Counted from the first letter of the stretch, positions 9,152-37,512 are shown. The stretch: 42,330 bases of DNA from an uncultured archaeon (GCA_964444075.1 CAYUFF010000001.1:1-42330), one strand, 5' to 3'. A program made the numbers and translations. The notes: a model not told the origin generated them from the sequence alone.

Positions 9152-9204
9152 GAAAAATCTTTATTTAGAATTTTCTCTCCGACAATCCAACCTTTCCACT
9201 AATC

Positions 9205-9735: not shown

Positions 9736-9821
9736 CCCTATGTGGATTCCCGATGCAAGGTACTTTGCTTTCGGTATCAGAAACCTTACCGGAATTTTTC
9801 CACCCCCTAAAAATTAAGCCC

Positions 9822-10607: not shown

Positions 10608-10608
10608 A

Positions 10609-10773
10609 TTATTTATTTCCCGCGGTTTCCCTTATAAGCTTTCTCCTCCACTTCCCGAACTTATCCTCTGGAGAATACCTAGGCGGATGTGGCGATACCG
10701 TCGCTCTCCCGCACTTCGGACAAGTATCCTTTAGCGTGTACAAGCCGCAACTCTTGCACTTCCTCAGCCTCAC
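10609..10773 (-). CDS. nop10: H/ACA ribonucleoprotein subunit Nop10 (54 aa, GTG start). Not in the ORF track because it is shorter than 60 aa.
   Basis: Manual translation of the minus strand gives 'MRLRKCKSCGLYTLKDTCPKCGRATVSPHPPRYSPEDKFGKWRRKLIRETAGNK'. It has the Nop10 zinc ribbon CxxC...CxxC and 'HPPRYSPEDK...RR'. Stop TAA at 10611..10609, 1 nt before the ATG of the PAC2-like gene. It sits between aIF2-alpha and PAC2 as in other archaea. Confidence 0.8.
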   Translation of the reverse strand: MRLRKCKSCGLYTLKDTCPKCGRATVSPHPPRYSPEDKFGKWRRKLIRETAGNK

Positions 10774-15471: not shown

Positions 15472-17631
15472 ATGATGCCCTCGATCGACGTAAGCGCTCT
15501 CGCGAGAAAATGCTTTTACCCAAGCTTGCTTATCGTTTTGCTCGGAGGCATAGTTTATCTCTCGGTGTGGGTGAGGCTCTCCACAATCTCCACTCCTACT
15601 GTCTTGGACTACGACCCGTGGTGGTTCTACAGGCATGCGAAGATGATTTTGGAAAACGGATTTAAGATGCCCGCCTGGGATTATCTGAGCTTCTACCCTC
15701 CTGGAAGACCCGTCGAACCTTTCCAAGGATGGTCGTACACGATAGCGTTACTTTACCTGCTACTGAAAAACCTATCACCTTCCATCACGCTAACGAAGGC
15801 CGCGATAATCTCTCCGCTCGTGATGGTAGCGCTTACTCCTATTCCAGCTTTCTTCCTCGGCAGGATACTAACGCGAAACGACGTGGGGGCTTTGGCTACC
15901 GCCCTCTTCTCAACCTTAACGCCAGCTTTCATAGGAGTCAGCATGGCCGGTTATTGCGATACCGACGCTCCCGTGGTCTTTTACTCCTTCCTTTCCGTAT
16001 TGAGCGTAATCCTAGCCATTCAAAGAAAATCGATATCCCTATGCGTTATCGCCGCCCTCGTGAACTTCTTGTTCATCTTCAACTGGGGAGGAGGTTGGAT
16101 CACTCTCATGCTTTTCACCGCGTTCATCCCGGCGATCCTAGCCTTCAGGGTCCTCGAATCGTTCTTGCATACTGGAAGGTTGACGCTCACCACAGAATGC
16201 CTGCGAGAGTTGAAATCTCTCTTGCTTCCCTTGGTAATAATCCTCTCGATCACCAACGTGCTGGCAATCGTGTTCGGGTTCCACAACATCCTCCAATCTT
16301 TCAGGGGAAGCTTAGCCTTCACCGGCATAGCTGGTCAGCCCTTGATCGTGAACATCTCAGTAGCCGAGCTCCAACCCATCAACATTTTTACCAGGGACGG
16401 ATTTCTACAGGTCGCCGGTAGAGTGGGTGTCCTTCCTCTGGTCCTTTCTCTCTTCGGAATCCCTGCTCTCGCGATTTTCAAGCTTTGGAGGAGGGAAAGG
16501 ATTTCTTGGGTCGAGGTCTTCCTCTTCCTCTGGGCACTCGTCGCTTTCTACCTCATCTCAAGGGGTGTAAGGTTCTCGTTACTATTTTCGATCGCAGCCA
16601 CGGTCTCGAGCGGCTACGTGGTAGGAAACCTGTGGAACTACCTGAAAGGGAGGAGAGATGTCGTTTCCTTCACAGTTTTCGCCCTCCTGGCTTTCTTCTC
16701 GTTCCTCTTCGTTTCCCACGCAATAAAGATGGGAATCGCCAGCAAGGGAATGCTCATCAGCAAGAATTGGTATGAAATGCTAGATTGGCTTAAGGAAAAC
16801 GCTGATAAGGATGCTTTGGTAGCTACCTGGTGGGACCCTGGACATATACTCGCTGGTTACACGGGGTTGAAGGTTCATGCAGACGGAGCTCACTGCCCTC
16901 CTGCTCACTGCGTTCCCTACAACCACAACATAAGGATTCAGGACATGGGTAAAATCATGACTACAAGCGATGAGGAGGAGGCGATAAGGATAATAAAGAA
17001 GTACACGAACCTCACGAAGGAGCAGTGCGAGCAGGCCAAGGAGTGGCATAAGGGGAAGATGCCAGAAGATGCGTGCAAGCCCGTTAGCGAGGTTTACTTG
17101 ATAGCCAGCAACGACTTGATAGGCAAGTACTACTGGATGAGCTGCTTCGCAACCTTCGACTGGGACCTATGGACGAAGACCAACGGGAAGAAGTGGAGGT
17201 GTGATGGCAGGAGCTTCTTACAAGCGTTCTTCAAGAAGATGGACCAAGCCCGCGGGATAATAACTTATTGCCCTGGAAGCTGCGATACTTACAAGATTGA
17301 GCTCGTGACCAAGGAAGATAAGCTCGTTCCCGTGCTAACGGTTCCTGGGCAAGGAATAGTCAACGCGGTCGTGAAGGAAATAGTCTACTACCAAGACGGT
17401 AGGGAGGTCTCGCAGGTCTACGAGAAAGCCAAGGTAGATGGCTTGGTATGGGTTGACCCAAGCTTTTCTCTCGTTATCTACATGGACCCGAAAGTTAGGG
17501 ACTCTTTGTTCACAACTCTCTTTTTCTGGGACGGGGATAGTAGCAAGGCTTTCCCTGAGGGGAAGAAGCTCGAACACTTTAAACTAGTGCTCAAGAATCC
17601 AGAGATAAGGCTCTACAAGGTTGTTTTCTAG
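15472..17631 (+). CDS. aglB: Archaeal oligosaccharyltransferase AglB (STT3 homolog), 719 aa polytopic membrane protein
   Basis: Multi-TM N-terminal half with 'DYDPWWFYRHAKMILENGF' (first-loop DxD region). Soluble C-terminal domain carrying the STT3 signature 'WWDPGH' (WWDYG variant). Confidence 0.8.
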   Translation: MMPSIDVSALARKCFYPSLLIVLLGGIVYLSVWVRLSTISTPTVLDYDPWWFYRHAKMILENGFKMPAWDYLSFYPPGRPVEPFQGWSYTIALLYLLLKNLSPSITLTKAAIISPLVMVALTPIPAFFLGRILTRNDVGALATALFSTLTPAFIGVSMAGYCDTDAPVVFYSFLSVLSVILAIQRKSISLCVIAALVNFLFIFNWGGGWITLMLFTAFIPAILAFRVLESFLHTGRLTLTTECLRELKSLLLPLVIILSITNVLAIVFGFHNILQSFRGSLAFTGIAGQPLIVNISVAELQPINIFTRDGFLQVAGRVGVLPLVLSLFGIPALAIFKLWRRERISWVEVFLFLWALVAFYLISRGVRFSLLFSIAATVSSGYVVGNLWNYLKGRRDVVSFTVFALLAFFSFLFVSHAIKMGIASKGMLISKNWYEMLDWLKENADKDALVATWWDPGHILAGYTGLKVHADGAHCPPAHCVPYNHNIRIQDMGKIMTTSDEEEAIRIIKKYTNLTKEQCEQAKEWHKGKMPEDACKPVSEVYLIASNDLIGKYYWMSCFATFDWDLWTKTNGKKWRCDGRSFLQAFFKKMDQARGIITYCPGSCDTYKIELVTKEDKLVPVLTVPGQGIVNAVVKEIVYYQDGREVSQVYEKAKVDGLVWVDPSFSLVIYMDPKVRDSLFTTLFFWDGDSSKAFPEGKKLEHFKLVLKNPEIRLYKVVF

Positions 17632-18324
17632 CTAGAAGTACTTTTCCTTCGAGGAAATAACTATTCCTCGCTCGGTAATCTCGAAAGGATGAACCTGCAT
17701 GCTGTGCTTCGTCCTCCTCATCTTCACTATCTGCAAAGCACGCATGGGAGTTTCCAACGGCAAAACTTTCAGCACGATCACGCTATCGGCTATGAATTCC
17801 TCGAAGCCAAGCCTCCCGAGGGATTGCTGGCCCGATGGTATCTCGGTTATCACCACGCTTGTCATCCTGAGCCTTTTCAAAGTTTTTATCAGGTTGAAAA
17901 CCTTCGTCCTTATCTTGAAAGCTTCTTCCGGCCTTTCCTTCCAGCCCATCGCAGCAAGGGTTAAGCTATCCAGCACGAACCTTTTCACACTTCCCAACCT
18001 CGTGGCTTCTGTGTGGATGAAAGTTTTTAACTCTTCAACATCGCCGGGAGTGAAGTTTACTATCTTACAGAGCCCCTTTTCTATGTAGCTCTTGAAGTTC
18101 CAGCCGTACCTTTCCATGTCCTTCATTATTTCCTCCGGCTCTTGCTCCAGACTTACATATAGCCCTTTCTCTCCTGACTGCAAGCCCTTCCAGATGAATT
18201 GGCAGCCGAAAGTCGTCTTGCAAGTCCCTGTGGCACCAGCCACTAGGTTGACGGAATTCTCCACGAAGCCTCCCTCCATCAACTCATCGAGCCCAGGTAT
18301 TCCCGTCGGAACTCTTCCTGCCAT
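17632..18324 (-). CDS. KaiC-like single-domain RecA-superfamily ATPase (COG0467)
   Basis: 'TGIPGLDELMEGGF', Walker A 'GATGTCKTTF', C-terminal 'KMRRTKHSMQVHPFEITERGIVI'. Convergent with aglB; the stop codons abut ('tagcta'). Confidence 0.8.
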   Translation of the reverse strand: MAGRVPTGIPGLDELMEGGFVENSVNLVAGATGTCKTTFGCQFIWKGLQSGEKGLYVSLEQEPEEIMKDMERYGWNFKSYIEKGLCKIVNFTPGDVEELKTFIHTEATRLGSVKRFVLDSLTLAAMGWKERPEEAFKIRTKVFNLIKTLKRLRMTSVVITEIPSGQQSLGRLGFEEFIADSVIVLKVLPLETPMRALQIVKMRRTKHSMQVHPFEITERGIVISSKEKYF

Positions 18325-18365
18325 GGTTTCTGAATTTAATTTTTCCTGAGAAAAAATAATAAATT

Positions 18366-21300
18366 ATGCGCGAGTCCTTGCTGAAAGAGTTGTTCATCGC
18401 GATCACCTTCCTCACGCTTACCGTCGCTACTCTTGCTAAACTTTCTGTGGCGGCGTCACCATGGCCGAAGATACTCTTGGTCAAGGATGCCCATTGGTTC
18501 AAGGGAGAGTTAGTCGGAGTAGCCGAAGAGATTCACAAGTACTACGTTCGAATCTTTAACGGACTTAAAGATGAATATGGTATCGAGTACGAAAACTGTA
18601 CGATTCCGTGCACCGAGCAACCTTGTTCCGTTAACGGTCCCTGCTACAACTCAACCTATCCTTCCGGCTGCAAAAGTGGTTGTAAGGAAGGGGAGGACAT
18701 TTATCTCCAGGATTATGACGTGGTGATATGGGTTACCGGAGAAGATTCTGCAGGAGAAACGTTGGTTGAAGGTGATCAAGAGTCTTTAAAAGAATTCCTC
18801 GATAACGGGGGTATGCTCTTCCTTACAGGTCAGGACATTGGTTACGATATAGGCACCACGAGTTTTTACCAGGATTACTTACACGCCTATTATTGTAAGA
18901 ATGACATCGACGACTGGGACTTGGAAGGTAGGGAAAACGATCCGATAGGACATTACCTCAACCCTTACATTTCTGGAGGCGATGGGGCTGACAATCAGGA
19001 TTCTCCTTCAGTAATCTATTATTACCTTCCTCTCTTAGATGCGGTAGATAGTTCTAGGAGCTCGTTTTACTACGGGGATACTTCCGATAAAATAATCTTA
19101 GACTGTTTTAAGTGGGTGAAGTGGTTAGGTATATACTATGTCTGCCAAGAAGGAGAATGTAGGTGTGGGGAGAACTTAATTTGCAACTGGACAGACAAAG
19201 ATGACCCCTGCCACTCATTCTGTGACAGATATGAGGGCGATCCCTGCGTATACTGTGACGCTACTGAAGAGGTCGTCCTCACCTCAAAAATTCCCTCATC
19301 CGTTCGGGTAAACACCGGGGGACCTTTGGGTTATAAAGTGGTGTATTTCGCGTTCGGCTTCGAAGCCATCAACAATACGGATGATAGAAAGAGGGTGATG
19401 GGTAGAGTTTTAGCTTACCTTTTCCCGCCAAGGGTAAAAGAATCTCACATGTACGTTAACGCAAGTTCAATTTCTGGAGAAGATTGGGTCGAGGGCAACC
19501 TTACCTGCGACCCTAGCGATGAGTACTGTCATCGAGGTTATCCCAAGATAAACGCTACCTGCCGAAATTATCAGCTTTTCGGTAAAGTTAGCGGAGCTGA
19601 GTACTACATCGATGATCCGGTGCTACCAGAGAGGTTCGCTGGTAATGGTATTAATCTCCAAGCTAAGGATGGTAGCTTCAACGACGACTCTACCGAAGTC
19701 GTTGAAGGGGTGATTATTTTTCCAGAGAACCTACAACTGCCTAACACGATAGGTACGCACTACCTCTACGTCCATTGCAACGACACGGACGGTTACTGGG
19801 GAAAGTATGATAAACTCGTCTTTACAATCGATAGATACCATCCCCTCAATGTCATCTTTACATCCGACAACTCTCACTACACTAACAAAACCCTTCCAAA
19901 CTTTTTTGTGGAGTACGCTGACACGGACGAGTTTTACCATTATTCAAGGTTTTCGTGTAATGGAACTAGTTGGACTCCTTGGGAAAAAATAACTGGTAGT
20001 AACCAAGCTGGGACCTTCACTTTTTCGAGCGCTTTCAACGTTACAGTCTCGGAGTTCGGTTGTCCTACCGATGATGGTAACAGAACTATTTACGTCCAAA
20101 TAAGGGATTCCGCAGGGAATTGGCACGAGTCTGAATCTACAGCTTCATTCTGGGTTTTCTTGGACAGAAAGGCTCCGAGGATAATTTCCGTTTCTCCTCA
20201 AAACAAGTCTCACCCTTACCCTCACCTAAAGTCTTCCGACAACATCACGGTAACTTTCTACGACCCATCTCCAGCATCCGGTGTTGAGAGTAGCTACTGG
20301 GCGAACGAATCTCAAGGAGTTAAGCACGAGTTGTTCAATAACACTCCTTTTAACCCAGGGTGGAAGAACGAGGGAACCAACTACCTTTACACGTGGATAA
20401 TCGATAAGGCTGGGAACGTTAACAAAAGCGTTTTCACTTTCGTTGTAGACGACACACCTCCTTACGTTAGCATAATCTTTCCTGAAGATGGTGAACACTA
20501 CAACACCACAAGCTTAAACCTGAACTTTACTGCCTACGACGTTCTGAGCGGAGTGGATTCTTGCTGGTACTCTTTAGACGGTGGAGATAATCAAACGATT
20601 CCTTCCTGTCAGAACATCACCATGACAAACCTTACAGAAGGTGTTCATGAGCTCAAGCTTTTCGTCAACGATTCCCTAGCGACGAGGGGGAACGAGAATT
20701 CCACGAGCATCGAGTTCACGATAGACTTAACAAAACCTTTCGTCTACTTGCTTTCCCCCACTAACGGTTCTTGGCTGGCTACCCAGTATCCAGAGTTTTC
20801 TTTCAAGGTCGTGGACAACCTCGCGAAGGTTATGAAGTGCAAGCTTTACGTCGACGGGAGCCTTAGGAAAGAGTTTCCGAGCGTTCATAACAATACCACT
20901 ACCTCTTGGGAAATCGACGTGGCCCTCGATGAAGGTCTCCACAACTGGACTGTAGCGTGCGTGGATAAAGCCGGCAACAGCAACGTTAGCGAGACTCGGT
21001 GGTTCTATGTCGACGTCAGCACACCAGAGGTAAAGTTGATCTCTCCAGTAGATAACGAGTGGGTAAACACCACGAGACCGAAGTTTTACTTCAACGCTAC
21101 CGACAATCTTTCCCCAACGTTAACGTGCAAGCTCTACATCGGTAGTTCTCCCGATAACTCTACCGAGGTGCAGAGCGGTGAGATAACTTACATCCTTGCC
21201 AACAACAGCGTTGGCGAAGGTAGACACGAGTACTGGGTAGAATGCTTCGATATGGCTAACAACGGATACGGGGCCTCCTCAGTATTTAGAGTCGACGTTA

Positions 21301-24300
21301 CTCCACCACGAATCTCCGACCTGAAGCCTAGTAACGAGACGTGGACGAGCAATGACACCATAATCTTCGAGTTTAACGCTACCGACAACCTTTCTCCATC
21401 GATCTACTGCAGCCTTTTGGTAAACTCCTCTATCAAGAAAACTTTGGAAACTCCAGGTAATGTGGTCGAAAAGGTTGAGCTGATTTTCTCTTCTGACGGG
21501 GTATTTTCTTGGAAGGTTAACTGTAGCGATGAAGCAGGCAACGAGAACGAAACCCTCGCTCGCTTACTCTTCGTAGACTTCACGCCACCATCCACTAGCG
21601 ATAATGCCTCTTCCTCCTGGACGAAGGAGAATCAAACTATTCTTCTAACTTGCGTGGATAATCTCTCTGGTTGTAACAAGACTCTCTACTGCACCTACGA
21701 TGAAGGAGCGACTCCTTGCGAGCCTTCCCAACAGCCTCAGAACGTTTCGAAGAAAGGTGAAAGGGAAGTCAACTACACCTTGGAGGTAGATTGTCCTGAA
21801 GGGAGCACCTGCAAGAAGTACTTGAGGTACTTCAGCAACGACACTCTCTCTAACGAGGAAAACGTTAAAGAAACTCTCATTCTCATAGACAAGCAAGCAC
21901 CGTCGATAACGATCCTTTCCCCGCAGGAAGGAAAGACCTATAGCGGTGTTGTAGAGCTTAAGGCTAAGGTTGTCGACATTGGGGTTGGCGTCGATAAGGT
22001 ATGGTTCGAAATCAGGAACTCCACCAACATTCCGCAAGTCTTCGCGAGCGGCATGATGGAAAGATGTGACGATGACACGTGGTGCTCCTCATGGGATAGT
22101 TCTTCGATAACCAACGGAACGTTCGTGTTTAACGTTTCAGCAAACGACACGTTTGGGTACTTGAAGCAAAACGTTAACGTAACTTTCCACATCGCTAACA
22201 CTTATCCTTCCGTAAAGATTTATTATCCTTCGCGAGTTTTCGTGAACGACAGCTTCAACCTCAACTTAACAGTGGAATCGCCTGCCACACCTGATGTAAA
22301 CATTTCCTTCGCTTACTACAACATCTCCAACGAAACTCGCCACATGGTAAAGCATAACGAAAGCGGAATAGTGAACCAATCCTCCTACGTTTTCAGCGAG
22401 CTTTTCAACATCTCTTCTTCTTGCAATAACGCTGCTTGCAGCGAGGGTAACTACACGATATTCTTCTGGGCGAACAATACTCAAGGCAAGATTTCCAACG
22501 TAACTTCTTGGTTCGTGATAGACATTACTAGACCATCAATCAGGTTGAACTCACCCGCTGACGATACTTGGTTTTCTTTGAGAGTCATTGACGTAAGCTT
22601 CACACCTATCGATAACCTTTCGCCTACGCTCTTTTGCGAGCTTTTGGTTAACGACGTGGTTAACGCGAGTGACGAGGTTGACAACTCTACTCAAATCATC
22701 TTTTCAACGAGCGAGTTAGAGGAAGGGCATCATTCTTGGAAGATAAGGTGTAAGGACAAAGCCGGCAACAGCAACGTTAGCGAGACTCGGTGGTTCTACG
22801 TTGACGTTAGCAAGCCCAAGATCGAGTTGATTTCTCCTGGAGATGGGGAATGGTTGAACGACACGACACTTACCTTAAAATTCAAGGCAATCGATAACCT
22901 TTCACCGAATTTGACTTGCGATATTTTCGTAGACGGTTCGAAAGACGGTAGCAAATCTGTTAGTAACGCGGAAGAAGCTGCCTACGAAGTTTCGATAAGT
23001 GAGGGTGAGCATTCCTGGAAGGTGAACTGCAGCGACCTTGCAAAAAACTCCAACGAATCTTACCCACGAGAGTTCTACGTTGACGTTACACCACCAGAAG
23101 TTACACTCATCTCTCCCGATAATGACACTTGGACCAACAATCCTTATCCAACCTTTGAATTCAAGGGTTACGACAACCTTGCTAGCAGACTGAACTGCAG
23201 CCTCGTAATCGACGGAATAATTCTCGCTTCGAAAATAGTTTACAACGGTAGCGAGGAATCGATCACTCCCTCAACAGCTCTGGGAAGCGGGGAGAGGAAA
23301 TGGAAAATAGTTTGTAAAGATTTTGCAGGCAATACCAAAGAGAGTGAAGAAAGGGTTATAAACGTCGATACCCTTGCTCCAAACACCAGCGATAACGTCA
23401 GCAGCGAGTGGAAGAACGTTGACCAAAGCATCCTGCTAACTTGTAAGGACCTTCCTTCCGATAACCCTTCTGGCTGTAATGTAACCCTAGTAAGTACTTG
23501 CGACGCTTATACTTCAGAATGCTCGCCTTTCTCTCAGCCTCAGAACGTTTCGAAGAAAGGTGAAGCTGAGGTCAACTATTCCCTAACTTTAACCTGCGAT
23601 GAAGGAAAGGTTTGCGAGTACTATTTGAAGTACTATTCCAACGATACCCTCGGTAACTTGGAGAATGTAAAGTCTTCTGGAAGGGTAAAAATAGACAAGT
23701 TCGTTCCTAGGGTTTCGATCCTTTCTCCGAAGGATAATGAATTTGTCAGCGGAATCTTGCAAATAAAAGTTAAGATCGTAGAAAATGGCTCTGGAATCAA
23801 GGAGGTAAGATTCCTAATCAAAAATTCCACTTTCAACGTTTCGGGAGAGTTGAGCGAGAGTGACGAAGGAATTTGGGTATCTACGTTCGACACCACCTCG
23901 TTGAAAGACGGTACTTACGAGCTTTGGATAAACGCTAGTGATAACGCTACTAACGTCAACTGCACTGAGCACGTTTCCTTTAAGGTCGATAATACACCAC
24001 CAAGTCTCATAAGCAATGTGACGAGCTTATCCTTGGATAAAAGCTACGGAGATTATAGATTGCTGTACGGGGAACAATTCACTTTCTCGGCCGAGCTGGA
24101 GGATTTCGTCGGTGTCGATTCAGCTTTCCTAAGGATAAAACTGTCCAACGGAGAGAATTGGCTCGGTTATCCACTCTCCTTAGCTGAAGGTAACGAGAAC
24201 TTTGGGAATTGGAGCACTACAGTCTCGATCCAGGAAGAAAGTTTTCCGCTGGGAGCGCACACCATTCACTCTCTAGTGGTCGCTGATAAGTTGGGTAATA

Positions 24301-27300
24301 CCAAGGTGTATCAGGTGGACATTCCGTTCAGGGTAGTGAACCTAACCTTAGAGCTGAAGGTCTGCAATACAACCTACATAGACGCAGGAAGGAAATGCAA
24401 GCTCAACCTCACAATAGATTTCAACAAGACGGTTCCCAACCCTAGCATCGCCTTGGAGATTCCGAAAGAGCTTCAAAACCAAACCGCTTACGCTTGTTCG
24501 CTCGACGATAGCAAAGCTTGCAACGTTGAGAACGTTGAGCTCGAAGGTTCTTATGCCGTTTATCTGGAGGCTCGTGGTTTAGAGGATTCTTCGAGGATGA
24601 ACCTTACTTCATTACTCAAGGCTGTAACTCCGCTAGAAGATAGAAAACTTACTTGGAACTTCACTTTCATGGGAAAGACTTACAAGCTTCACACCTTGCT
24701 CAGGACGCCATACCTTAACATCACCAACGTGACTTGCGATTCCTCTTCCGCCTGCGAAGTGGAGCAGAAGAAAAAGTTTAACTTCACCGTGTTTGTCGAG
24801 AACGTGAACCAACCATCGCTCCACACGGGAAGTGCTTACGAGGTCTTCGCTAACTACACGAGCGAAATCTCTGCCGGTATAGCGAAGAAAGTTTCTGAAT
24901 TGTTAGAAAGTGGTGAGGAAGCCTTCGCAACCTGGGAACTAAACCTTACCAAAGCAGGGGAACACATCTTCAAGGTCTTCGCGTGGGAATTCACGCGAGT
25001 CTACAACGCTACCTTCGAGAAGAAGGTTAAGGTACTCGACGTGGAGAAGCCTCAGCTAATCGACGTTTACTGGAAGGATGACGATAACGTTTTCAACAGG
25101 AATGAAACCATCGAGTACTTCGTGAAAGCGAGGGACAACGTTGGAATTAGAAGCGTTTGGGTTGAGGTCAACAACTCTGAGAAAAACTTCCTGAGAAACC
25201 TCTCGCTAGCTTTAGAGTATGCTTTCGAAGATTACGAGCTGTGGAAGCTCGAGTACAAGAACGATTCAGCAGGAATTTATAACATAACGAGAATCTTCGT
25301 CAACGACACTTCCGGAAACCTCGAAGTATTCGTTCCCACTGGCAAGGAAGCTTTGTTCGAAATAAGGAAGCTTTCCGTCAACGCTTCAGTCGCCTCACCT
25401 TCGCTCAAGGTGGGGAATTATCAGAACATTACCGCTAGCATTTCTGGAAACGCTTCGCTGGTAACGAAGGTCGTAGCAAAGATAACCAAGCCATACGGAG
25501 AAACCGAAACGATTACCTTAACCGACTCCGGAAACTTTACTTACGTGGGTAGCCTTTTCGTGGACGAATCCGGAAACTACAGCATAAACGTTTCCGTCAC
25601 CCTCGCTTCAGGAATTGAGAGGTTTAACCTAACCAACTTCTCCTCACCCTACGGAACTCCAAGGATAGAAACTAGGAATCTTACTTTACTCAACGGAAGT
25701 TCTTACGAGTTTTCGTATTACTTGTACCCTCAAGGAGGAGACCTCATCGGCGTAAACGCTAGCTTAATCATCGATAACGAAAGCGTGATAATTTCGGAGG
25801 AGGGTTCTAGCAAAACTCTGGGAGATATTCTTTGGAAGGAGTGGAAGGATGAAGGTTTCAGGTCTACTTGGAAGTTGCTGGCCAAGAATGTTGGCGAGAC
25901 CAACGTTACGCTACTCGTAAACTCCAGTAAAGGAGGTAATTCCCAAAGAACTTTCTTCGTAAGGGTCGTTGGAAGCGATGAAAAACCACCCTCGCTTAAG
26001 GAGTACTCCCACGAGTATCCAAGGTTAAATCTGATGGAAGAAAACCCGATAAAGGTTATAGCCTACGACAACGAAACTGAAATCAAGAACGTTACCATAC
26101 TCGTAACTTTCCCGAGCGGTGTCACGAAAAGCTACGAGGCTACCGAATACGAACCCTTCAGCTACGTGCTACTCTTCAACGAGACGGAAGAAGTCGGTAA
26201 TTATACCTACGAGGTAAAGGTTTTCGACCTCGCCGGTAACGTCAACGTAAGCTCTGAGAAAGGGAGCTTCGAGGTCGTCGATACTTTCTTGGTCAGCGTA
26301 ACACACTCTCCTTACAACAAGGGTGATTTGATAACGTTCAAAGTCAACGTTACCGACGCTAGGGGCTTGCCGGTAAAAGGTTTCAACCTCACCCTGGTTC
26401 TACAGAAGAACGAGACGGGCAACCAAACTCTTGCGAACAACACGATAACAGAAGAGGTTTCCTACAGGGTCATGCCTACCGACCCTCCCGAAAGCAGTAG
26501 GGAAAAATCTTTGGCCTCGACCTACGTGGTTTACGCTACGGTTACTAAAAACGGAAACAAAGGTGTTTACAAGGGAGAGTTTGAGGTTAGCGAAGAACTT
26601 AAAACTACCATAATCTATCCTTCCGCTGGAGCTTACTTCTCGCCGGGTGGTAAGATTCCTCTGAAAGTGGAAGTTAAAAACGTTAGGGGAGAGATTGTAG
26701 ATGATGCCGTCGTGGTAGCTTATTGTCCGGATTGTTCCTGGAACTACAGGCTCGTTCCTTGGAACAGCAGCTTACAAGCTTATTATTCTCCAGAAGCTTT
26801 CATAGCACCGAATAAAGAAAGCTTCTCGATTTTCGTCTACTCGGTAGACCACTGGAAGAACATGGGAATGTACGGAGAAGTGCTAACCACGGTAAAGCCA
26901 CCAGAGTATCCTACCATTCCTCCAGGAGGCGGAGGGGCTGAAGAAGGCTTTCCTGGGATAACTTGCAACTGTACTCCTTGGATTGAGATAGGTTGCGGTA
27001 TGGGTACTTGCAAGGACGATGAGATGTACATGGTAAGGACCTGCAACCCTCCGGGGTGCGCTGCAGAAACGAAGTGTGAAAAAGTGCCCGCATGCATAAA
27101 GGGAAAGTTCAGCTTGGAGTTTCCAGATGCGGCAGAAGTCATGCAGGGAAAGGACTCCGTTTTGATAGGAAGCGTGAGAAACAACGAGAAAATAGGGATT
27201 AAAGTCGTGTTCTCTTGGGTAGAGAAACCGAAGGTCCCGATTTCGCTAACCCTTCCTGGAGCAATTTCTCTCGGTGCTGGAGAATCGAAAGATTTTGAAG

Positions 27301-28187
27301 TAAGGATTCACGTCCCGCTCAACGTGAGCGTAGGTGAGTATCCGGCTTCGTTTTCTGCGAAGAGCAAGAATTATACCTTCGCGAAGACTTTCAAGATAAT
27401 CGTAAAACCGAACCCGCTGATAGAGAAATATGTGAGTTTGCAAGAGTCGTTGAAGGAATTCAAGAAAACGCTGGAAGCTTACAGAAAAGTTGGAGTCGAC
27501 GTTAGGGAGATAGAAGACCTCGTTAAAACTTTAGAGAAGAGACTTGAGAAAGCGAGAGCCTCGTTGAAAAAGGATGAGTTGAAAGTATTCGAAGCGGAGA
27601 TAAAGTCTGCCGAAAAGGTTGTGAACGCTGTGAAGCTAAAAATATTCCAGCTGAAGCTCTGGAAGTTCTTGTTGGAAAACAAGTGGAATTTCATAATCAT
27701 CGCCCTAGCAGCGCTCTTCTCGAACTATTTCGCTACGCAAGTAGCGATCCCTTACTACAAGCTTACGAAGAAGTTGAGGAAGCTTAAAGACGAAGAACAA
27801 TCGCTGATAGCGGCGAGAGTCGAGGTTCAGAAGCAGTACTTCACGAGGAAGATAGACGAAAGAACTTTCTTCGCCTTAATGGCGGAGAAACAGGGAAAAA
27901 TCCTTAGAGTAAGGGCTGACGTGAGAAGACTAGAGCTAGCGAGGAGGAAGTTACTGATATCCAAACTACATCCAAAAGAAATGTTAAAGTGGATGAAAGA
28001 AAGTTTTGCAAACCTACCGAAAAGTTTGAGAAAGTTGAGAGGTGTTCCTTCAAAGAAGAGGAAGGTGGAAAGGAAGCCGCCCTCTTTGATGGTTCCTGAG
28101 ATAAAGATCAGTATGGAAGTGAAATACAGGATTTGGAAGATAAAGCACAAGCTGAAAAAACTATTTAGGAGTGTTTTCAAAACTTAA
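18366..28187 (+). CDS. Giant cell-surface glycoprotein (3273 aa). It has a signal peptide and Cys-rich N-terminal modules. It has tandem ~95-aa Ig-like repeats and a ~600-aa segmental duplication. It has a Cys-rich juxtamembrane knot, a beta-domain, a coiled coil and a TM helix. It has a ~150-aa basic coiled-coil cytoplasmic tail.
   Basis: 'MRESLLKELFIAITFLTLTVATLAKLSVAAS' signal. Extremely dense N-x-S/T sequons. Repeat consensus 'P.V.LISP.D..W.N...P.F.F...DNLSP.L.C.L.VDG...W.V.C.D.AGN.N'. TM 'NFIIIALAALFSNYFATQVAI'. Tail 'KKLRKLKDEEQ...KKRKVERKPPSL'. Uninterrupted 9.8-kb ORF. Confidence 0.85.
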   Translation: MRESLLKELFIAITFLTLTVATLAKLSVAASPWPKILLVKDAHWFKGELVGVAEEIHKYYVRIFNGLKDEYGIEYENCTIPCTEQPCSVNGPCYNSTYPSGCKSGCKEGEDIYLQDYDVVIWVTGEDSAGETLVEGDQESLKEFLDNGGMLFLTGQDIGYDIGTTSFYQDYLHAYYCKNDIDDWDLEGRENDPIGHYLNPYISGGDGADNQDSPSVIYYYLPLLDAVDSSRSSFYYGDTSDKIILDCFKWVKWLGIYYVCQEGECRCGENLICNWTDKDDPCHSFCDRYEGDPCVYCDATEEVVLTSKIPSSVRVNTGGPLGYKVVYFAFGFEAINNTDDRKRVMGRVLAYLFPPRVKESHMYVNASSISGEDWVEGNLTCDPSDEYCHRGYPKINATCRNYQLFGKVSGAEYYIDDPVLPERFAGNGINLQAKDGSFNDDSTEVVEGVIIFPENLQLPNTIGTHYLYVHCNDTDGYWGKYDKLVFTIDRYHPLNVIFTSDNSHYTNKTLPNFFVEYADTDEFYHYSRFSCNGTSWTPWEKITGSNQAGTFTFSSAFNVTVSEFGCPTDDGNRTIYVQIRDSAGNWHESESTASFWVFLDRKAPRIISVSPQNKSHPYPHLKSSDNITVTFYDPSPASGVESSYWANESQGVKHELFNNTPFNPGWKNEGTNYLYTWIIDKAGNVNKSVFTFVVDDTPPYVSIIFPEDGEHYNTTSLNLNFTAYDVLSGVDSCWYSLDGGDNQTIPSCQNITMTNLTEGVHELKLFVNDSLATRGNENSTSIEFTIDLTKPFVYLLSPTNGSWLATQYPEFSFKVVDNLAKVMKCKLYVDGSLRKEFPSVHNNTTTSWEIDVALDEGLHNWTVACVDKAGNSNVSETRWFYVDVSTPEVKLISPVDNEWVNTTRPKFYFNATDNLSPTLTCKLYIGSSPDNSTEVQSGEITYILANNSVGEGRHEYWVECFDMANNGYGASSVFRVDVTPPRISDLKPSNETWTSNDTIIFEFNATDNLSPSIYCSLLVNSSIKKTLETPGNVVEKVELIFSSDGVFSWKVNCSDEAGNENETLARLLFVDFTPPSTSDNASSSWTKENQTILLTCVDNLSGCNKTLYCTYDEGATPCEPSQQPQNVSKKGEREVNYTLEVDCPEGSTCKKYLRYFSNDTLSNEENVKETLILIDKQAPSITILSPQEGKTYSGVVELKAKVVDIGVGVDKVWFEIRNSTNIPQVFASGMMERCDDDTWCSSWDSSSITNGTFVFNVSANDTFGYLKQNVNVTFHIANTYPSVKIYYPSRVFVNDSFNLNLTVESPATPDVNISFAYYNISNETRHMVKHNESGIVNQSSYVFSELFNISSSCNNAACSEGNYTIFFWANNTQGKISNVTSWFVIDITRPSIRLNSPADDTWFSLRVIDVSFTPIDNLSPTLFCELLVNDVVNASDEVDNSTQIIFSTSELEEGHHSWKIRCKDKAGNSNVSETRWFYVDVSKPKIELISPGDGEWLNDTTLTLKFKAIDNLSPNLTCDIFVDGSKDGSKSVSNAEEAAYEVSISEGEHSWKVNCSDLAKNSNESYPREFYVDVTPPEVTLISPDNDTWTNNPYPTFEFKGYDNLASRLNCSLVIDGIILASKIVYNGSEESITPSTALGSGERKWKIVCKDFAGNTKESEERVINVDTLAPNTSDNVSSEWKNVDQSILLTCKDLPSDNPSGCNVTLVSTCDAYTSECSPFSQPQNVSKKGEAEVNYSLTLTCDEGKVCEYYLKYYSNDTLGNLENVKSSGRVKIDKFVPRVSILSPKDNEFVSGILQIKVKIVENGSGIKEVRFLIKNSTFNVSGELSESDEGIWVSTFDTTSLKDGTYELWINASDNATNVNCTEHVSFKVDNTPPSLISNVTSLSLDKSYGDYRLLYGEQFTFSAELEDFVGVDSAFLRIKLSNGENWLGYPLSLAEGNENFGNWSTTVSIQEESFPLGAHTIHSLVVADKLGNTKVYQVDIPFRVVNLTLELKVCNTTYIDAGRKCKLNLTIDFNKTVPNPSIALEIPKELQNQTAYACSLDDSKACNVENVELEGSYAVYLEARGLEDSSRMNLTSLLKAVTPLEDRKLTWNFTFMGKTYKLHTLLRTPYLNITNVTCDSSSACEVEQKKKFNFTVFVENVNQPSLHTGSAYEVFANYTSEISAGIAKKVSELLESGEEAFATWELNLTKAGEHIFKVFAWEFTRVYNATFEKKVKVLDVEKPQLIDVYWKDDDNVFNRNETIEYFVKARDNVGIRSVWVEVNNSEKNFLRNLSLALEYAFEDYELWKLEYKNDSAGIYNITRIFVNDTSGNLEVFVPTGKEALFEIRKLSVNASVASPSLKVGNYQNITASISGNASLVTKVVAKITKPYGETETITLTDSGNFTYVGSLFVDESGNYSINVSVTLASGIERFNLTNFSSPYGTPRIETRNLTLLNGSSYEFSYYLYPQGGDLIGVNASLIIDNESVIISEEGSSKTLGDILWKEWKDEGFRSTWKLLAKNVGETNVTLLVNSSKGGNSQRTFFVRVVGSDEKPPSLKEYSHEYPRLNLMEENPIKVIAYDNETEIKNVTILVTFPSGVTKSYEATEYEPFSYVLLFNETEEVGNYTYEVKVFDLAGNVNVSSEKGSFEVVDTFLVSVTHSPYNKGDLITFKVNVTDARGLPVKGFNLTLVLQKNETGNQTLANNTITEEVSYRVMPTDPPESSREKSLASTYVVYATVTKNGNKGVYKGEFEVSEELKTTIIYPSAGAYFSPGGKIPLKVEVKNVRGEIVDDAVVVAYCPDCSWNYRLVPWNSSLQAYYSPEAFIAPNKESFSIFVYSVDHWKNMGMYGEVLTTVKPPEYPTIPPGGGGAEEGFPGITCNCTPWIEIGCGMGTCKDDEMYMVRTCNPPGCAAETKCEKVPACIKGKFSLEFPDAAEVMQGKDSVLIGSVRNNEKIGIKVVFSWVEKPKVPISLTLPGAISLGAGESKDFEVRIHVPLNVSVGEYPASFSAKSKNYTFAKTFKIIVKPNPLIEKYVSLQESLKEFKKTLEAYRKVGVDVREIEDLVKTLEKRLEKARASLKKDELKVFEAEIKSAEKVVNAVKLKIFQLKLWKFLLENKWNFIIIALAALFSNYFATQVAIPYYKLTKKLRKLKDEEQSLIAARVEVQKQYFTRKIDERTFFALMAEKQGKILRVRADVRRLELARRKLLISKLHPKEMLKWMKESFANLPKSLRKLRGVPSKKRKVERKPPSLMVPEIKISMEVKYRIWKIKHKLKKLFRSVFKT
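20967..21007 (+). repeat. 41-nt perfect intragenic repeat, copy 1 (encodes '..KAGNSNVSETRWFY..')
   Basis: 'aaagccggcaacagcaacgttagcgagactcggtggttcta' is identical to 22758..22798. In-frame offset 1791 nt. Confidence 0.85.
22758..22798 (+). repeat. 41-nt perfect intragenic repeat, copy 2
   Basis: Identical to 20967..21007. Flanking sequence is also about 70-80% identical over several hundred nt (for example 21732.. vs 23535.., 'cagcctcagaacgtttcgaagaaaggtgaa'). Confidence 0.85.
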
Positions 28188-28195
28188 AATTTAGT

Positions 28196-28972
28196 ATGGA
28201 GTTCGAAAACTCTGAGGAAAGGGGAATTGTAGAAAGAGTTTCTACCGGAGTGATCGGTCTAGACGAGCTTATTCAGGGCGGCTTCGTCAAAGGCTCTGTA
28301 GTACTAGTTACGGGAAAGACTGGGACAGGAAAGACAGCTTTCGCCGCGAGCTACCTTTACGAAGGTGCTAAGAGGGATGAGCCGGGTGTGTACGTTACGA
28401 CAGAAGAGAGGGAGGAAGATATAAAGGATGATATAATGGCCATGTTCGGTTGGGATTTAAGAGCCTTGGAGGAGAAAAAACTGGTTAAATTCTTGTCGGT
28501 AAAGCCAGTGATACCGACTTCAGCTATACGAGCATTTTCTTCGATGGAGGAGGAGATAGGGAGCATAATAAAGCTCTACATAATCGACCTGTCTAAGAAG
28601 ATCGAGGAAGCCGTTAAGGAGATAAACGCCAAGCGCGTCGTGATAGACTCGATATCGATCATCGAGATGTTCATCAAAGATGAATATATGAGGAGGGTAG
28701 CCTTAATCCAGCTCGTAAACAACCTGAAGGAGCTCGGAGTTACCACCCTCCTCACCGGAACCATCGAGGAAGGTTCCGAAGCCTTGAGCCTTTCTGGAAT
28801 AATAGAGTTCATCGTGGACGGCGTGATAAAGCTGGACTTCGTCCCCGTAGCGGAGGAGTTCAAGAGGACCTTAACAGTCAGGAAGATGAGGAGAACCGAG
28901 CACTCGATCTATATTCATCCCTTCGAGATAACCAAGGAAGGCCTCAAGATCGTAGAAATATCTTCCATCTGA
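28196..28972 (+). CDS. KaiC-like single-domain RecA-superfamily ATPase, paralog of 17632..18324
   Basis: 'TGVIGLDELIQGGF', Walker A 'GKTGTGKTAF', C-terminal 'KMRRTEHSIYIHPFEITKEGLKIV'. Starts 8 nt after the giant protein's stop, so it is likely co-transcribed. Confidence 0.8.
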   Translation: MEFENSEERGIVERVSTGVIGLDELIQGGFVKGSVVLVTGKTGTGKTAFAASYLYEGAKRDEPGVYVTTEEREEDIKDDIMAMFGWDLRALEEKKLVKFLSVKPVIPTSAIRAFSSMEEEIGSIIKLYIIDLSKKIEEAVKEINAKRVVIDSISIIEMFIKDEYMRRVALIQLVNNLKELGVTTLLTGTIEEGSEALSLSGIIEFIVDGVIKLDFVPVAEEFKRTLTVRKMRRTEHSIYIHPFEITKEGLKIVEISSI

Positions 28973-29736: not shown

Positions 29737-30678
29737 GTGAGTCCGAGGAACGGGGTCGCCTCACGGCTTTTCGTCGGAATAGTAGGCTTCGCGGCGTTCC
29801 TGCTACTCTTGAAAATTTTCCTCCCGGGACTTTTCACCCTAATCCTTCGAGCGCTCCCTTTCCTTGCCCTGGCTTCCGTAGCCTTCTTCGGCTTTTACAA
29901 GGTCTTCATCGTAAACTACGGCGAGACGGAAAGGGGAATAATCTACAGGTTCGGAAAGTTTAATAGGGTAGCTGGCCCAGGATGGGCGATCGTTATACCG
30001 TTCTTCGAGCAGGAGTTTAAGAGGGTTGACATAAGGACTAGGAGCGTGACGCTCAACAACATAACGGCGGTAACCAGGGATGACATTCCTCTGACCTTGG
30101 ATGCCGTCTTCTTCTACTCGATAGCCGACCCCAAGAAAGCCGTACTCCAAGTTACCGTACTCGAGGATGCTCTAAACAACTTCGTTTACGGGGTAATAAG
30201 GGATAGCGTTGGCGGCTTCGTGATGAGGGAAGCCTTCTACAACATCGAAGGTATTAACGAGGAGTGCAAGAAAAGGTTGGTGTTCGCCCTCGAAGAATGG
30301 GGTGCCGACGTGAAGGATGTGGAGATCCTCAGGGTCAAGATTCCGGACGATGTGTTCAAGGCGTTGATAGCACCGGTAACCGAAGAGCAGAAGGCTATAG
30401 CGGCGAGGTTCCAAGCGGAGGCTAAGAGGGTCGCTGTAGAGGTCTTGGGAGACGCTGCAGAAAGGCTGAACCCGCAGGCTTTGACCTACCTTTACCTCAA
30501 GGCGCTAGAAAAGATAGCATCTTCCAAGGGCTCGAAGATAGTGCTGCCGGCTTCCTTTCCAAAGATTACCGAAGACTTGATGAAAGGCGTTGGAATAGGA
30601 GCTGGGTTGGAGGCCATAAACGCCGAGGAGGCGATCAAGAAAATAGCGGAAAAACTACAGCAGAAACCTGGGGGTTAA
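29737..30678 (+). CDS. SPFH/band-7 (stomatin/prohibitin-like) membrane protein
   Basis: N-terminal TM followed by 'GIIYRFGKFNRVAGPGWAIVIPFFEQEFKRVDIRTRSVTL..TRDDIPLTLDAVFFYSIADP', typical of the SPFH domain. Ala/Glu-rich coiled-coil C-terminus. GTG start. Confidence 0.8.
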   Translation: MSPRNGVASRLFVGIVGFAAFLLLLKIFLPGLFTLILRALPFLALASVAFFGFYKVFIVNYGETERGIIYRFGKFNRVAGPGWAIVIPFFEQEFKRVDIRTRSVTLNNITAVTRDDIPLTLDAVFFYSIADPKKAVLQVTVLEDALNNFVYGVIRDSVGGFVMREAFYNIEGINEECKKRLVFALEEWGADVKDVEILRVKIPDDVFKALIAPVTEEQKAIAARFQAEAKRVAVEVLGDAAERLNPQALTYLYLKALEKIASSKGSKIVLPASFPKITEDLMKGVGIGAGLEAINAEEAIKKIAEKLQQKPGG

Positions 30679-31227
30679 CAGGGTCGTCAAGGATATAGCA
30701 AACGCGACAGCCCAGGCCTTCTTGCTCCACCAGAAAACCTTGCTCCCGTCCAAAGGAGGAATCGGAAGCAGGTTGAAGAGCGCTAGCCACGCGTTGATGA
30801 AGACTAATGTCCTTACGAAGCTCGGCGTCGAAGAGAACGGCAGGAAAATCGCAGAAATCATAATGTTCGCCAGCGGTCCTGCCAAGGCTACTATCCCCAT
30901 CTCTTCTTTAATCCTCCACGGCGGCTTGAAATAAGTGGAGAATGCCGGTAGGATGACGACGGCTCCGGGCAGCACTACTATTATGCCTAGGAAGGAAAAG
31001 ACCAACCCGAGCATCAGCCCTTCGAGCGAGGCTTTGAAAAACGCGACGTAGCCGAATTTTTTCGCAACCTGCCTGTGGGCAAGCTCGTGCACGAAGAAGC
31101 TGAGGACCACGAGAAGGAAGTAGGATAAAAGCAGCCTAGGGTCGAAGACCCCGTTAGCAATCCAAAAGATTAGGCTAAGTAATAGTATCGCGAGAGCTAT
31201 ATCGGTGACCTCTTCTCTGTAAAACAC
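30655..31227 (-). CDS. Site-2-protease family (M50) intramembrane zinc metalloprotease, minimal form
   Basis: 'FFVHELAHRQVAKKFG' HExxH within a TM helix, plus 'LFNLLPIPPLDGS' (NxxPxxxLDG) M50 signature. About 6 TM segments. Confidence 0.7.
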   Translation of the reverse strand: MFYREEVTDIALAILLLSLIFWIANGVFDPRLLLSYFLLVVLSFFVHELAHRQVAKKFGYVAFFKASLEGLMLGLVFSFLGIIVVLPGAVVILPAFSTYFKPPWRIKEEMGIVALAGPLANIMISAIFLPFSSTPSFVRTLVFINAWLALFNLLPIPPLDGSKVFWWSKKAWAVAFAISLTTLLTPRFLL

Positions 31228-31228
31228 G

Positions 31229-32050
31229 CTACTCCTCCGCGAAGTACTTCAACGCTTCCTCCACGTTGCTGACTTCTTTAACTTCTATTCCGCATTCCTT
31301 CCCGATGTTGACCTCTTTCAGCTCGTAGGTAGAAGTGCAAACCTTCTGGTAGAAACCTGGCGCTCTGTATTCCTTACACTTTACCTCTGGAACGTATTCT
31401 TTGTAGACTCCTTGACCTTCCGGTACTAAGAAAAGTGTTGCTCCACTCTCTTTGGCCGCTTTGCACTTCTCTATTACTCCGCCGACTTTTCCTATCGAGC
31501 CGTCTTCTTGTATCGTGCCTGTAATGACCACATCCTCACGCAGGGTAATGTTTTTTAACGCGGCTATCGTCGCTATCGTCAGTGCAGCGCCAGCCGATTC
31601 TCCTTCCACCAACGATGCCTCAGTTTCTACGGAGTAGATTAAATCTATTCTGGAAGTATCCACGTTAGTATAGGCTTCCGCGACCTTTTTCGCCACCCTG
31701 ATGGAGTGCTGCGTGTCTATCCAGAAGGAAAGTTGTTTGATGTTCACCAGAACCCTACCCTCACCAGGGCGAGCTTGAACCTTGAGCGTGGTAATCACTC
31801 CGTTACCCTCGTTGTCCACCGCAGGAACCTTCAGGCTCACTGTGTAATTTTCCAGCGTTACGTTAGGGATAAAAGTCGGAATTATTCTCATACTTTCTTG
31901 AGAACCTCTTTCAACAGGTAAAAAGCTCGGCGTAGCAACGGTTGGTTGTAAAGGATAGAGTTGCGTTACCAAGAAGATTCCCAGCGCTATTCCTCCTACC
32001 ACGCTGAGCAAAAGGCCCACCCAAAAACTCCTCATAAATTCAAAAAACAT
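31229..32050 (-). CDS. Membrane-anchored Lon-like (S16) serine protease domain protein without an AAA+ module
   Basis: N-terminal TM 'FWVGLLLSVVGGIALGIFLV'. Lon proteolytic-domain motifs 'EGESAGAALTIATIAAL' (catalytic Ser) and 'ITGTIQEDGSIGKVGGVIEKCKAA' (catalytic Lys). 1-nt gap to the downstream M50 gene. Confidence 0.7.
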   Translation of the reverse strand: MFFEFMRSFWVGLLLSVVGGIALGIFLVTQLYPLQPTVATPSFLPVERGSQESMRIIPTFIPNVTLENYTVSLKVPAVDNEGNGVITTLKVQARPGEGRVLVNIKQLSFWIDTQHSIRVAKKVAEAYTNVDTSRIDLIYSVETEASLVEGESAGAALTIATIAALKNITLREDVVITGTIQEDGSIGKVGGVIEKCKAAKESGATLFLVPEGQGVYKEYVPEVKCKEYRAPGFYQKVCTSTYELKEVNIGKECGIEVKEVSNVEEALKYFAEE

Positions 32051-35633: not shown

Positions 35634-36020
35634 ATGCAGCACGACCTGCTCTCAGATGCTCTCTCTGCGATAAAGAATGCGGAAAGGGTTGGAAAGAAGG
35701 AATGTTTAGTGAAGGCTTCGAAGCTCGTGAGGAACGTGTTGAGAGTCATGCAGGAGCATGGGTACATAGGCAAGGTCGAGTACGTTTACGACGGTAGGGG
35801 TGGTAAGTACAGGGTCGAGCTCAGGGGAAGGGTCGTGGACTGCAACGCCATACGGCCGAGGTTTTCGGTCAAGGTGGATGAATTCGAGAAGTGGGAGAAG
35901 AGGAAGCTTCCGGCGAGGGACGTCGGGATACTGATCCTAACCACCTCCAAGGGCGTCATGGACCACAAGAAGGCCAAGGAGTTGCGCGTGGGGGGTAAGT
36001 TGATCGCTTATTGCTATTGA
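35634..36020 (+). CDS. rps8: 30S ribosomal protein S8 (uS8)
   Basis: '[26 protein letters not shown]...[12 protein letters not shown]' with C-terminal 'GGKLIAYCY'. Typical uS8 length and motifs. Immediately followed by rpl6. Confidence 0.85.
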
Positions 36021-36031
36021 GGTCGTGACCC

Positions 36032-36559: not shown

Positions 36560-36569
36560 GGTCTGTCCG

Positions 36570-37403: not shown

Positions 37404-37512
37404 AGCGTACTAGCACGTTTTCCCGGTGTTGCCTTACACAAAGGATGAAAGCCGAAACCGCGGCTTCCCTCGAAACGAAATTTTTAAGTTTTTTACTTCC
37501 CTCCTTACCCAT

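Follow-up and report, generated by a model that had tools for sequence, protein, structure and literature searches.

Two KaiC-like ATPase genes flank a giant surface-protein gene in an uncultured archaeon, a gene linkage that recurs in part across two archaeal phyla

We analyzed a 42,330-nucleotide (nt) stretch of DNA from an uncultured archaeon (GCA_964444075.1, CAYUFF010000001.1:1-42330), referred to here at its full length as the window. Three genes occupy positions 17632 to 28972: two encode KaiC-like ATPases, which we call A and B, and these stand on either side of a single open reading frame (ORF) of 3273 amino acids (aa) that encodes a giant surface protein. A first-pass annotation of the same DNA had described two KaiC-like ATPases of roughly 230-260 aa around one gene, and this much was borne out: A and B are 230 and 258 aa long, both match the Pfam KaiC family (PF06745) over their full length, and the gene between them is one ORF. 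The features of the locus, each with its evidence, are as follows.

17632..18324, minus strand: A, single-domain KaiC-like (RecA-superfamily) ATPase, 230 aa (ORF and Pfam PF06745)
17656..17724, minus strand: C-terminal block of A, KMRRTKHSMQVHPFEITERGIVI, holding the K-x-R equivalent to KaiC K224/R226 (alignment to KaiC LKLRGTSH)
18214..18237, minus strand: Walker A motif of A, GATGTCKT, non-canonical (alignments)
18325..18365, no strand: AT-rich 41-nt spacer separating the start codons of the divergently oriented A and giant genes (sequence)
18366..28187, plus strand: giant surface protein, 3273 aa, single ORF (ORF and Pfam Big_13, Big_7, Big_3_3)
26955..28184, plus strand: conserved C-terminal anchor module of the giant protein, last 410 aa (jackhmmer, HMMER and AlphaFold2, AF2)
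27693..27749, plus strand: transmembrane helix of the giant protein, aa 3110-3128 (hydropathy scan; inside a predicted continuous helix, module residues 243-296)
27816..27914, plus strand: cytoplasmic juxtamembrane helix-turn-helix, R..E.QYF.RKIDE.TF...M...Q..IL..R (44-sequence alignment)
28196..28972, plus strand: B, single-domain KaiC-like ATPase, 258 aa (ORF and Pfam PF06745)
28313..28336, plus strand: Walker A motif of B, GKTGTGKT, canonical (alignments)
28883..28951, plus strand: C-terminal block of B, KMRRTEHSIYIHPFEITKEGLKI, with the K-x-R element (alignments)

The spacer between A and the giant gene may act as a shared promoter region, and the stop codon of the giant gene lies 8 nt from the start of B.

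Against PF06745 (gathering score 26.6), A scored 202.3 bits over positions 1-230 of the 231-position profile and B scored 222.2 bits in an end-to-end match, and the N-terminal TG(I/V)(P/I)GLDEL..GGF motif reported earlier is present in both. We found 438 database relatives of A and 802 of B; the best 120 of the 438 are 44-72% identical to A and the best 120 of the 802 are 62-81% identical to B. The named relatives of both proteins, those of A included, are metagenome-assembled genomes (MAGs) of Aenigmatarchaeota, as labeled by the database sources. The further claim that A and B are close paralogs did not hold up. BLASTP aligned them at 37% identity over 243 aa, and they fall into separate orthologous groups, each with closer relatives of its own. 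In phmmer searches, B scored 132.5 bits against A, 162.8 against PH0186 and 145.1 against PH0284, the latter two being proteins of Pyrococcus horikoshii, and A scored 135.2 bits against B, 135.1 against PH0284 and 134.3 against PH0186. We also built a neighbor-joining tree with 200 bootstraps from the A and B families, the CI and CII domains of KaiC, PH0186, PH0284 and several haloarchaeal, Thermococcus and bacterial homologs. The B clade was recovered in 98.5% of bootstraps, A and B were sisters in 30%, and B grouped with PH0186 and PH0284 in 10%. The tree thus leaves a sister relationship of A and B undecided, and it is their identity and their membership in separate orthologous groups that point to an old split and rule out a recent duplication. 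A and B are two anciently diverged archaeal single-domain KaiC-like ATPases of the RecA superfamily, about as distant from one another as from their Thermococcales homologs.

The C-terminal block that A and B share had been taken as distinctive of the pair, a view that the comparison with other KaiC-like proteins overturns. A agrees with B at 15 of the 23 positions of the block, with PH0284 at 14 and with PH0186, whose block reads KMRETRHSMKKYPFEIGPNGIVV, likewise at 14. Among more distant single-domain KaiC-like proteins from metagenome loci, 56 had a match to the K-x-R element (3 further ORFs did not), and the block was present in recognizable form in 56/56, with His at +6 in 50/56, Gly at +19 in 55/56 and Arg after K-M-R in 19/56. 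This Arg is the one residue that separates A and B from the PDB references, PH0186 and PH0284 having Gly or Glu after K-M-R, and it is nearly fixed in the A family (111/120) and the B family (120/120). In both A and B, K-M-R aligns with K-L-R of the CI domain (K224/R226) and K-M-R of the CII domain (K457/R459) of Synechococcus elongatus KaiC, in which K224 and R226 of the adjacent subunit reach across and hold the ATP phosphates (PMC2777353). The block is a family-wide C-terminal element, K-x-R followed by the last beta-hairpin, and as a generic element it marks ring-forming KaiC-type ATPases in general and not the A/B pair. The sequences of PH0284 and PH0186 together with the 56 distant homologs rule it out as a private signature, and a private motif marking a recent duplicate pair, besides not holding here, would be of little interest taken alone. 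As originally described, A and B are largely ordinary: two members of a large family that carry a family-wide motif.

The catalytic residues set A apart from B. An intact Walker A motif had been reported for both proteins, which is correct for B (GKTGTGKT) but not for A (GATGTCKT), where a Cys replaces the Gly before the Lys of GxxxxGK[ST] and the Lys and Thr are retained. B likewise has a canonical Glu pair (TTEE) and Walker B (VIDS), whereas A keeps Walker B (VLDS) and the first Glu of its catalytic pair, SLEQE, and has Gln in place of the second. In the CI domain of KaiC the first of these residues, E77, activates the lytic water and the second, E78, coordinates Mg2+ (PMC2777353). The Walker A Cys occurs in 44/120 A-family matches, with Gly in 120/120 B-family matches and 5/5 references, and the E-Q pair occurs in 89/120 of the nearest relatives of A. 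Because it combines a Cys-bearing P-loop and a Gln at the Mg-coordinating Glu with a retained trans-acting K-x-R, A in the subclade of the window fits a regulatory or slow-hydrolyzing subunit, as judged from these residues. The A-like partners that lie next to B in other genomes are mostly canonical (E-E in 35/37, Gly before Lys in 35/37) and only 33-48% identical to the A of the window; the A-like family is diverse and evolves faster than B, which belongs to a slowly evolving, highly conserved orthologous group.

These residues bear on the possibility, which we consider unlikely, that A and B form an obligate hetero-hexamer, for instance A3B3, with the giant protein as their common client. 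A and B can both sit in a ring because both retain the trans-acting K-x-R and Walker B, and the modified P-loop and Gln of A beside a canonical B recall, in the subclade of the window, rings that are made of catalytic and regulatory subunits. Set against this, most B-adjacent partners are catalytically canonical, and the hexamers of PH0284 and PH0186 were each solved on their own (PMC5019145).

The protein encoded between the two ATPases carries a signal-like hydrophobic segment at its N-terminus and combines an ectodomain of immunoglobulin (Ig)-like repeats with one transmembrane helix and a basic cytoplasmic tail. We counted 137 N-glycosylation sequons in the ectodomain, against 37 expected from composition, and none in the tail, which has 44 Lys/Arg and 14 Asp/Glu residues; an outside-in topology fits a protein whose tail is basic and sequon-free and whose ectodomain is sequon-rich. 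The conserved part of the protein is its C-terminal module. In most loci, jackhmmer searches located this module at the C-terminal end of the protein encoded upstream of B, and an exhaustive HMMER search over 1.84 billion representative proteins found 256 cluster representatives that carry it, near the C-terminal end in nearly all of the matches listed (123-6221 aa, the shortest of which are likely fragments). A word-indexed homolog search with the module gave 3 matches, all annotated as hypothetical, and no Pfam family matched either the module or the 145-aa basic helical tail. The family is defined by its C-terminus; the ectodomains found in B loci vary in length between a few hundred and over 3000 aa. 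The AF2 model of the module (mean predicted local distance difference test 78) consists of a Cys-rich knot, an Ig-like beta-sandwich, a helical stalk and a long helix that contains the transmembrane segment and runs into the cytoplasm; beyond it, on the cytoplasmic side, come a helix-turn-helix, a basic stretch that is disordered, and a last helix. A fold search with this model returned only generic Ig/PapD-like matches for the beta domain, with TM-scores near 0.2.

Among 44 module C-termini from Aenigmatarchaeota and Nanohaloarchaeota, the best-conserved stretch is the juxtamembrane segment R..EKQYF.RKIDE.TF...M...Q..IL..R, and the helix-turn-helix that it forms contains many of the invariant columns of alignment A3. 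We propose this helix-turn-helix as a candidate docking site for the KaiC-like ATPase or ATPases. The window offers an internal control for the linkage between tail and KaiC-like genes in a second surface protein at 501-4655 (plus strand; 1384 aa), which has 80 sequons (5.8 per 100 aa) and its own transmembrane segment and basic tail. Of the module, this protein has no more than the Ig-like and stalk portion; the conserved cytoplasmic helix is missing, and its gene has no KaiC-like neighbor.

To describe the gene neighborhood, an alignment of the B family was scanned against one genome per GTDB species, which gave 80 loci, and the ORFs of each locus were classed with hidden Markov models of the A and B families and a profile of the last 480 aa of the giant protein. 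The module count below uses the loci with upstream sequence (81). As judged from the contig labels of this species-representative scan, the lineage-named B loci are nearly all from Aenigmatarchaeota or Nanohaloarchaeota-type DPANN MAGs; three others are labeled only Nanobdellati and many only uncultured archaeon, and two contigs carry the names of other phyla, which we take to be mis-binned. In 50/81 loci (62%) the gene immediately preceding B, on the same strand, is a module gene, typically with a gap of a few to about 60 nt or a short overlap. An A-like gene directly abuts B in 30/78 loci, mostly in convergent and sometimes in tandem orientation, and lies within 10 kb of B in 37/84; both neighbors are found in 24/75. 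We propose a DPANN triad of module protein, B-type KaiC and A-like KaiC, a grouping defined here and not a curated family, whose layout the window shows with B 8 nt downstream and A 41 nt upstream of the giant gene.

In relatives at 72-81% identity the order A (minus), giant gene (plus), B (plus) is retained. The first-pass annotation had considered A and B a dedicated duplicated pair; this synteny supports the view that they are not random members of the family, while the recent duplication and the private motif that went with the idea fall away. The gene neighborhood, and not the motif, is what is specific to A and B. The metallophosphoesterase, Band 7, STT3 and GT4 genes were ruled out as conserved partners, being kept only in the closest relatives. 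As a separate observation, the closest relatives carry a small nucleotidyltransferase gene (NTP_transf_2/Polbeta, of the toxin-antitoxin MNT type) between A and the giant gene (locus L001, 9534-9863; L003, 2396-2725; L004, 1-5), which the window lacks. The Nanohaloarchaeota orthologs of B also show a peculiarity of their own, in that their ORFs carry an N-terminal extension of about 180-560 aa (L054, 3238-5478; L059, 9434-10714; L062, 9191-10726; L072, 8330-10735) made up of a small conserved beta-rich domain, LYEFVKMYVG.LYVGLEYMHLEPGE, and then a long acidic low-complexity linker.

The neighborhood counts cut both ways for an obligate hetero-hexamer of A and B. An A-like gene abuts B in the 30 loci given above and the A/giant/B layout is kept in close relatives, as such a complex would lead one to expect, and yet roughly half of the B loci lack an A-like gene within 10 kb, several A-like paralogs can lie in one genome away from B, and in most loci B and its A-like neighbor are on opposite strands. 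Overall, the linkage of B with the module gene and the A-like gene is strong but incomplete, and it is not obligatory.

We propose that the cytoplasmic tail of the surface protein has a nucleotide-dependent partner in B, possibly joined by A, and we put the probability of this reading at roughly 0.45. B normally lies directly behind the surface-protein gene, with which it is probably co-transcribed. By analogy with the hexamers of PH0284 and PH0186, B would assemble into an ATP-dependent ring, either alone or with A. This ring would dock on the conserved cytoplasmic tail and, as a nucleotide-dependent switch, would control how the surface protein is assembled, anchored or engaged, or would report on these events. 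A comparable precedent for such docking would be the archaellum motor, in which the KaiC-like ArlH docks on the membrane-anchored ArlX scaffold. In favor of a partnership with the tail, the surface protein, otherwise hypervariable, is best conserved there.

Several observations weigh against this proposal. Neither neighbor is found in the available sequence of 23/75 B loci, even at 60-69% identity to B, and B and its A-like neighbor are usually convergent on opposite strands, so that they do not form an operon or share one transcript. The degenerate catalytic residues of A are confined to its own subclade, most B-adjacent partners being canonical. The contact of B or A with the tail is itself something we infer from sequence. 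Further points come from a metagenome scan seeded with the A family, in which the A of the window falls into a subclade, A1, that includes genes near B in loci L001, L009 and L011. Four other A1 genes (L007, L101, L102 and L107) have flanks of about 9-10 kb with no B or module gene nearby, the same is true of B in the case of L176, which lies outside the tree, and the A1 gene of L101 sits in a type IV pilus-like cluster. In addition, one 791-kb contig carries two A-like paralogs, neither of which is near B.

These A-side loci raise a second alternative, namely that only B is tied to the surface protein and that A works independently as a KaiC-like regulator of, for instance, type IV pili or another pathway, having been brought beside the giant gene by rearrangement. 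We regard this as rather unlikely. The five loci without B in their flanks are what it would predict, as are the tandem KaiC-like genes that L101 carries directly behind a pilin-containing pilus-like cluster, the report of 'two copies of kaiC' from pilus-type clusters of Nanohaloarchaeota (PMC9563170) and the link between KaiC-family ATPases and type IV pili (PMC4858521). It accords less well with the window, which has no pilus genes and in which A and the giant gene are divergent across a 41-nt spacer. Nor would it account for the layout being kept at 72% identity, where L001 has the nucleotidyltransferase gene intervening between A and the giant gene, or for the A-like genes beside B in the A1 loci L009 and L011.

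Two observations on individual A loci may be recorded here. At L101, positions 3943-10684 hold the type IV pilus-like cluster and, directly behind it, a tandem pair of KaiC-like genes, of which one belongs to A1. The cluster encodes a ParA/MinD-like ATPase, a 506-aa protein, a pilin carrying a class III signal peptide, and two membrane proteins. The B-less A-clade loci L096 (3-1322) and L007 (7465-8799) have a sequon-bearing surface protein with a C-terminal transmembrane segment and a short basic tail upstream of or near A, a hint of a possible further association between A-like ATPases and surface proteins anchored in the membrane.

A third alternative would make the position of A and B coincidental and the two proteins DNA-repair ATPases of the RadA-paralog (aRadC-like) type or housekeeping KaiC-like ATPases. 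SSO2452, described as a RadA paralog, is among the PDB matches of both A and B, there are weak matches to RadA and RadB models, and the surrounding genes are housekeeping genes: apart from those discussed here, the window encodes ribosomal proteins, PCNA, aIF2-alpha, subunits of pyruvate:ferredoxin oxidoreductase and NrdD. We nevertheless consider this very improbable. The RadA, RadB and Sms scores of about 20-36 bits are far below the cut-offs of 172-403, which also led us to reject a RadA, RadB or Sms identity; the Pfam scan detected no DNA-binding domain in A or B; and B and the module gene are adjacent in 62% of loci from two phyla, which in genomes of roughly 1000 genes is far above chance.

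Upstream of A the window holds two further genes that could touch on the surface protein:

14117-15298, plus strand: GT4 glycosyltransferase (Pfam Glycos_transf_1)
15472-17631, plus strand: STT3/AglB-type oligosaccharyltransferase (Pfam STT3)

Their products could glycosylate the sequon-rich giant protein, a link that is weak because this neighborhood is not kept in other loci. The GT4 gene lies in a patch of low GC content (0.38, against 0.44-0.58 elsewhere in the window). Some further features of the window may be noted. NrdD (ATP-cone plus NRDD; 5843-9151, minus strand) is split by an intein with a LAGLIDADG homing-endonuclease domain, and the gene of its radical-SAM activase is at 5136-5987. 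GC content is 0.56-0.58 at 36001-42000, compared with 0.44-0.50 over most of the window, and several long overlapping ORFs occur on both strands at about 38.7-39.8 kb. Near the locus, at 36570-37403 (plus strand) and 30655-32050 (minus strand), we noted a presenilin-like intramembrane protease (weak Pfam match), an M50 site-2 protease fragment and a Lon_C-domain protein. The window gave zero tRNA or Rfam matches.

Few archaeal regulators are as widespread and as poorly understood as the KaiC-like ATPases, and for most of those in archaea we know of no partner. DPANN archaea rely on cell-surface contact with their hosts, and to our knowledge it is not known how their giant surface proteins are controlled. 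The linkage of A and B to one another and to the gene between them has real though incomplete support from comparative genomics, and ATPase and surface-protein genes are repeatedly found linked in two archaeal phyla, which points to a lineage-specific module. It also provides a concrete pair of molecules, the tail peptide and B, with or without A, and nanohaloarchaeal co-cultures exist in cultivation. A bolder extension of the proposed partnership is an envelope device of Aenigmatarchaeota and Nanohaloarchaeota, undescribed so far, in which a hypervariable, heavily glycosylated giant protein is coupled via its cytoplasmic helix to a KaiC-like ring of B and a fast-evolving A-like protein; we hold this to be distinctly unlikely. 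Should it be true, the giant protein would be a host-contact adhesin or an S-layer-like stalk, and the ring would send contact signals inward or use ATP to control adhesin deployment, amounting to an 'integrin-like' link between surface and cytoplasm in ultra-small, probably host-dependent archaea. A small literature check found no paper that couples a KaiC-like gene to this surface-protein module, and a prior description is possible.

How A and B compare with known systems can be judged first from curated families. Both fall below all curated NCBIfam cut-offs, the nearest models being TIGR03880, TIGR03877 and the KaiC equivalog NF006799. For TIGR03880 (KaiC_arch_3) the scores were 161.6 bits (A) and 160.5 bits (B) against a cut-off of 249.45, for TIGR03877 (thermo_KaiC_1) 141.7 and 157.3 against 307.25, and for TIGR03881 (KaiC_arch_4) 100.2 and 129.9 against 247.8. 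The families TIGR03877 and TIGR03878, thermo_KaiC_1 and thermo_KaiC_2, form a gene pair, for which our analysis showed the names and sub-threshold scores only; A and B are below the cut-offs of both. A GvpD identity was rejected, as B scored 24.4 bits against the PF07088 cut-off of 24, A had no match, and the window has no gvp genes; the name GvpD that one source gives to a B ortholog is most likely transferred from such a weak PF07088 match.

Circadian KaiC aligns with A and B at the Walker A and B motifs, the catalytic Glu and the trans-acting K224/R226 element, and differs in having two tandem domains and in working with KaiA and KaiB, whereas A and B are single-domain proteins. At the S431/T432 phosphosites of the KaiC CII domain, A reads ADS and B reads VDG. 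KaiC gives the best full-length PDB score, since its two domains each contribute a match; taken by itself, the CI domain scores about 121-136 bits against A and B, about equal to or below PH0186 and PH0284. A circadian KaiC identity was rejected on the single domains and on the scores for NF006799 (A 144 and B 173 bits against 408) and TIGR02655 (A 103 and B 114 against 546), and there was no kaiB or kaiA match among the 26 ORFs of the window scanned against Pfam.

Pairs of KaiC-like genes are also known from pilus-type clusters. Xie et al. (2022) described 'two copies of kaiC' in such clusters of Nanohaloarchaeota (PMC9563170), and Makarova et al. (2016) linked KaiC-family ATPases to type IV pili (PMC4858521). 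The nanohaloarchaeal pairs resemble A and B as two single-domain KaiC-like genes close together in one locus. They differ in their company: the nanohaloarchaeal clusters have a pilus ATPase/TadC set, while the conserved third part here is a surface protein whose cytoplasmic tail is itself conserved. For the giant protein itself, the closest likeness is to the SPEARE proteins of Nanohaloarchaeota, which are also very large, mostly extracytoplasmic and rich in adhesion domains, with a transmembrane segment close to the C-terminus and a conserved cytoplasmic part (PMC6642349). That part contains type III restriction-enzyme-like domains in SPEARE, whereas the tail of the giant protein is a 145-aa basic helical segment lacking any restriction-enzyme-like domain, and a SPEARE identity was rejected for this reason. 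The words KaiC, RecA and ATPase are absent from the SPEARE paper (PMC6642349).

Two systems come nearest to what we propose for A and B. PH0186 (PDB 2zts) and PH0284 (PDB 2dr3) of Pyrococcus horikoshii have the same one-domain build of about 240-250 aa and have the TGIPG.DE...GG motif, Walker A and B, the Glu pair and the C-terminal block in common with A and B, apart from the substitutions in A noted above (phmmer 134-163 bits). They differ in coming from Thermococcales, in being functionally uncharacterized and in having Gly or Glu in place of Arg after K-M-R, and we know of no conserved link between them and a giant surface-protein gene. Both crystallized as hexamers (PMC5019145). The same study found that FlaH/ArlH binds the C-terminal cytoplasmic domain of the membrane-anchored FlaX/ArlX and that nucleotide binding controls this interaction (PMC5019145). 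An ArlH/FlaH identity was rejected for A and B (NF052589 and NF004723; 33.8 and 46.8 bits against a cut-off of 215), and the window has none of the arlI/arlJ, archaellin or pilus genes. ArlX is a motor scaffold, while the membrane partner here would be a giant protein with a glycosylated ectodomain. What ArlH/ArlX has in common with the proposed system is a single-domain KaiC-like ATP-binding protein that docks on a single-pass coiled-coil membrane protein. By analogy, then, A and B may work most like the single-domain hexamers of Pyrococcus and like ArlH.

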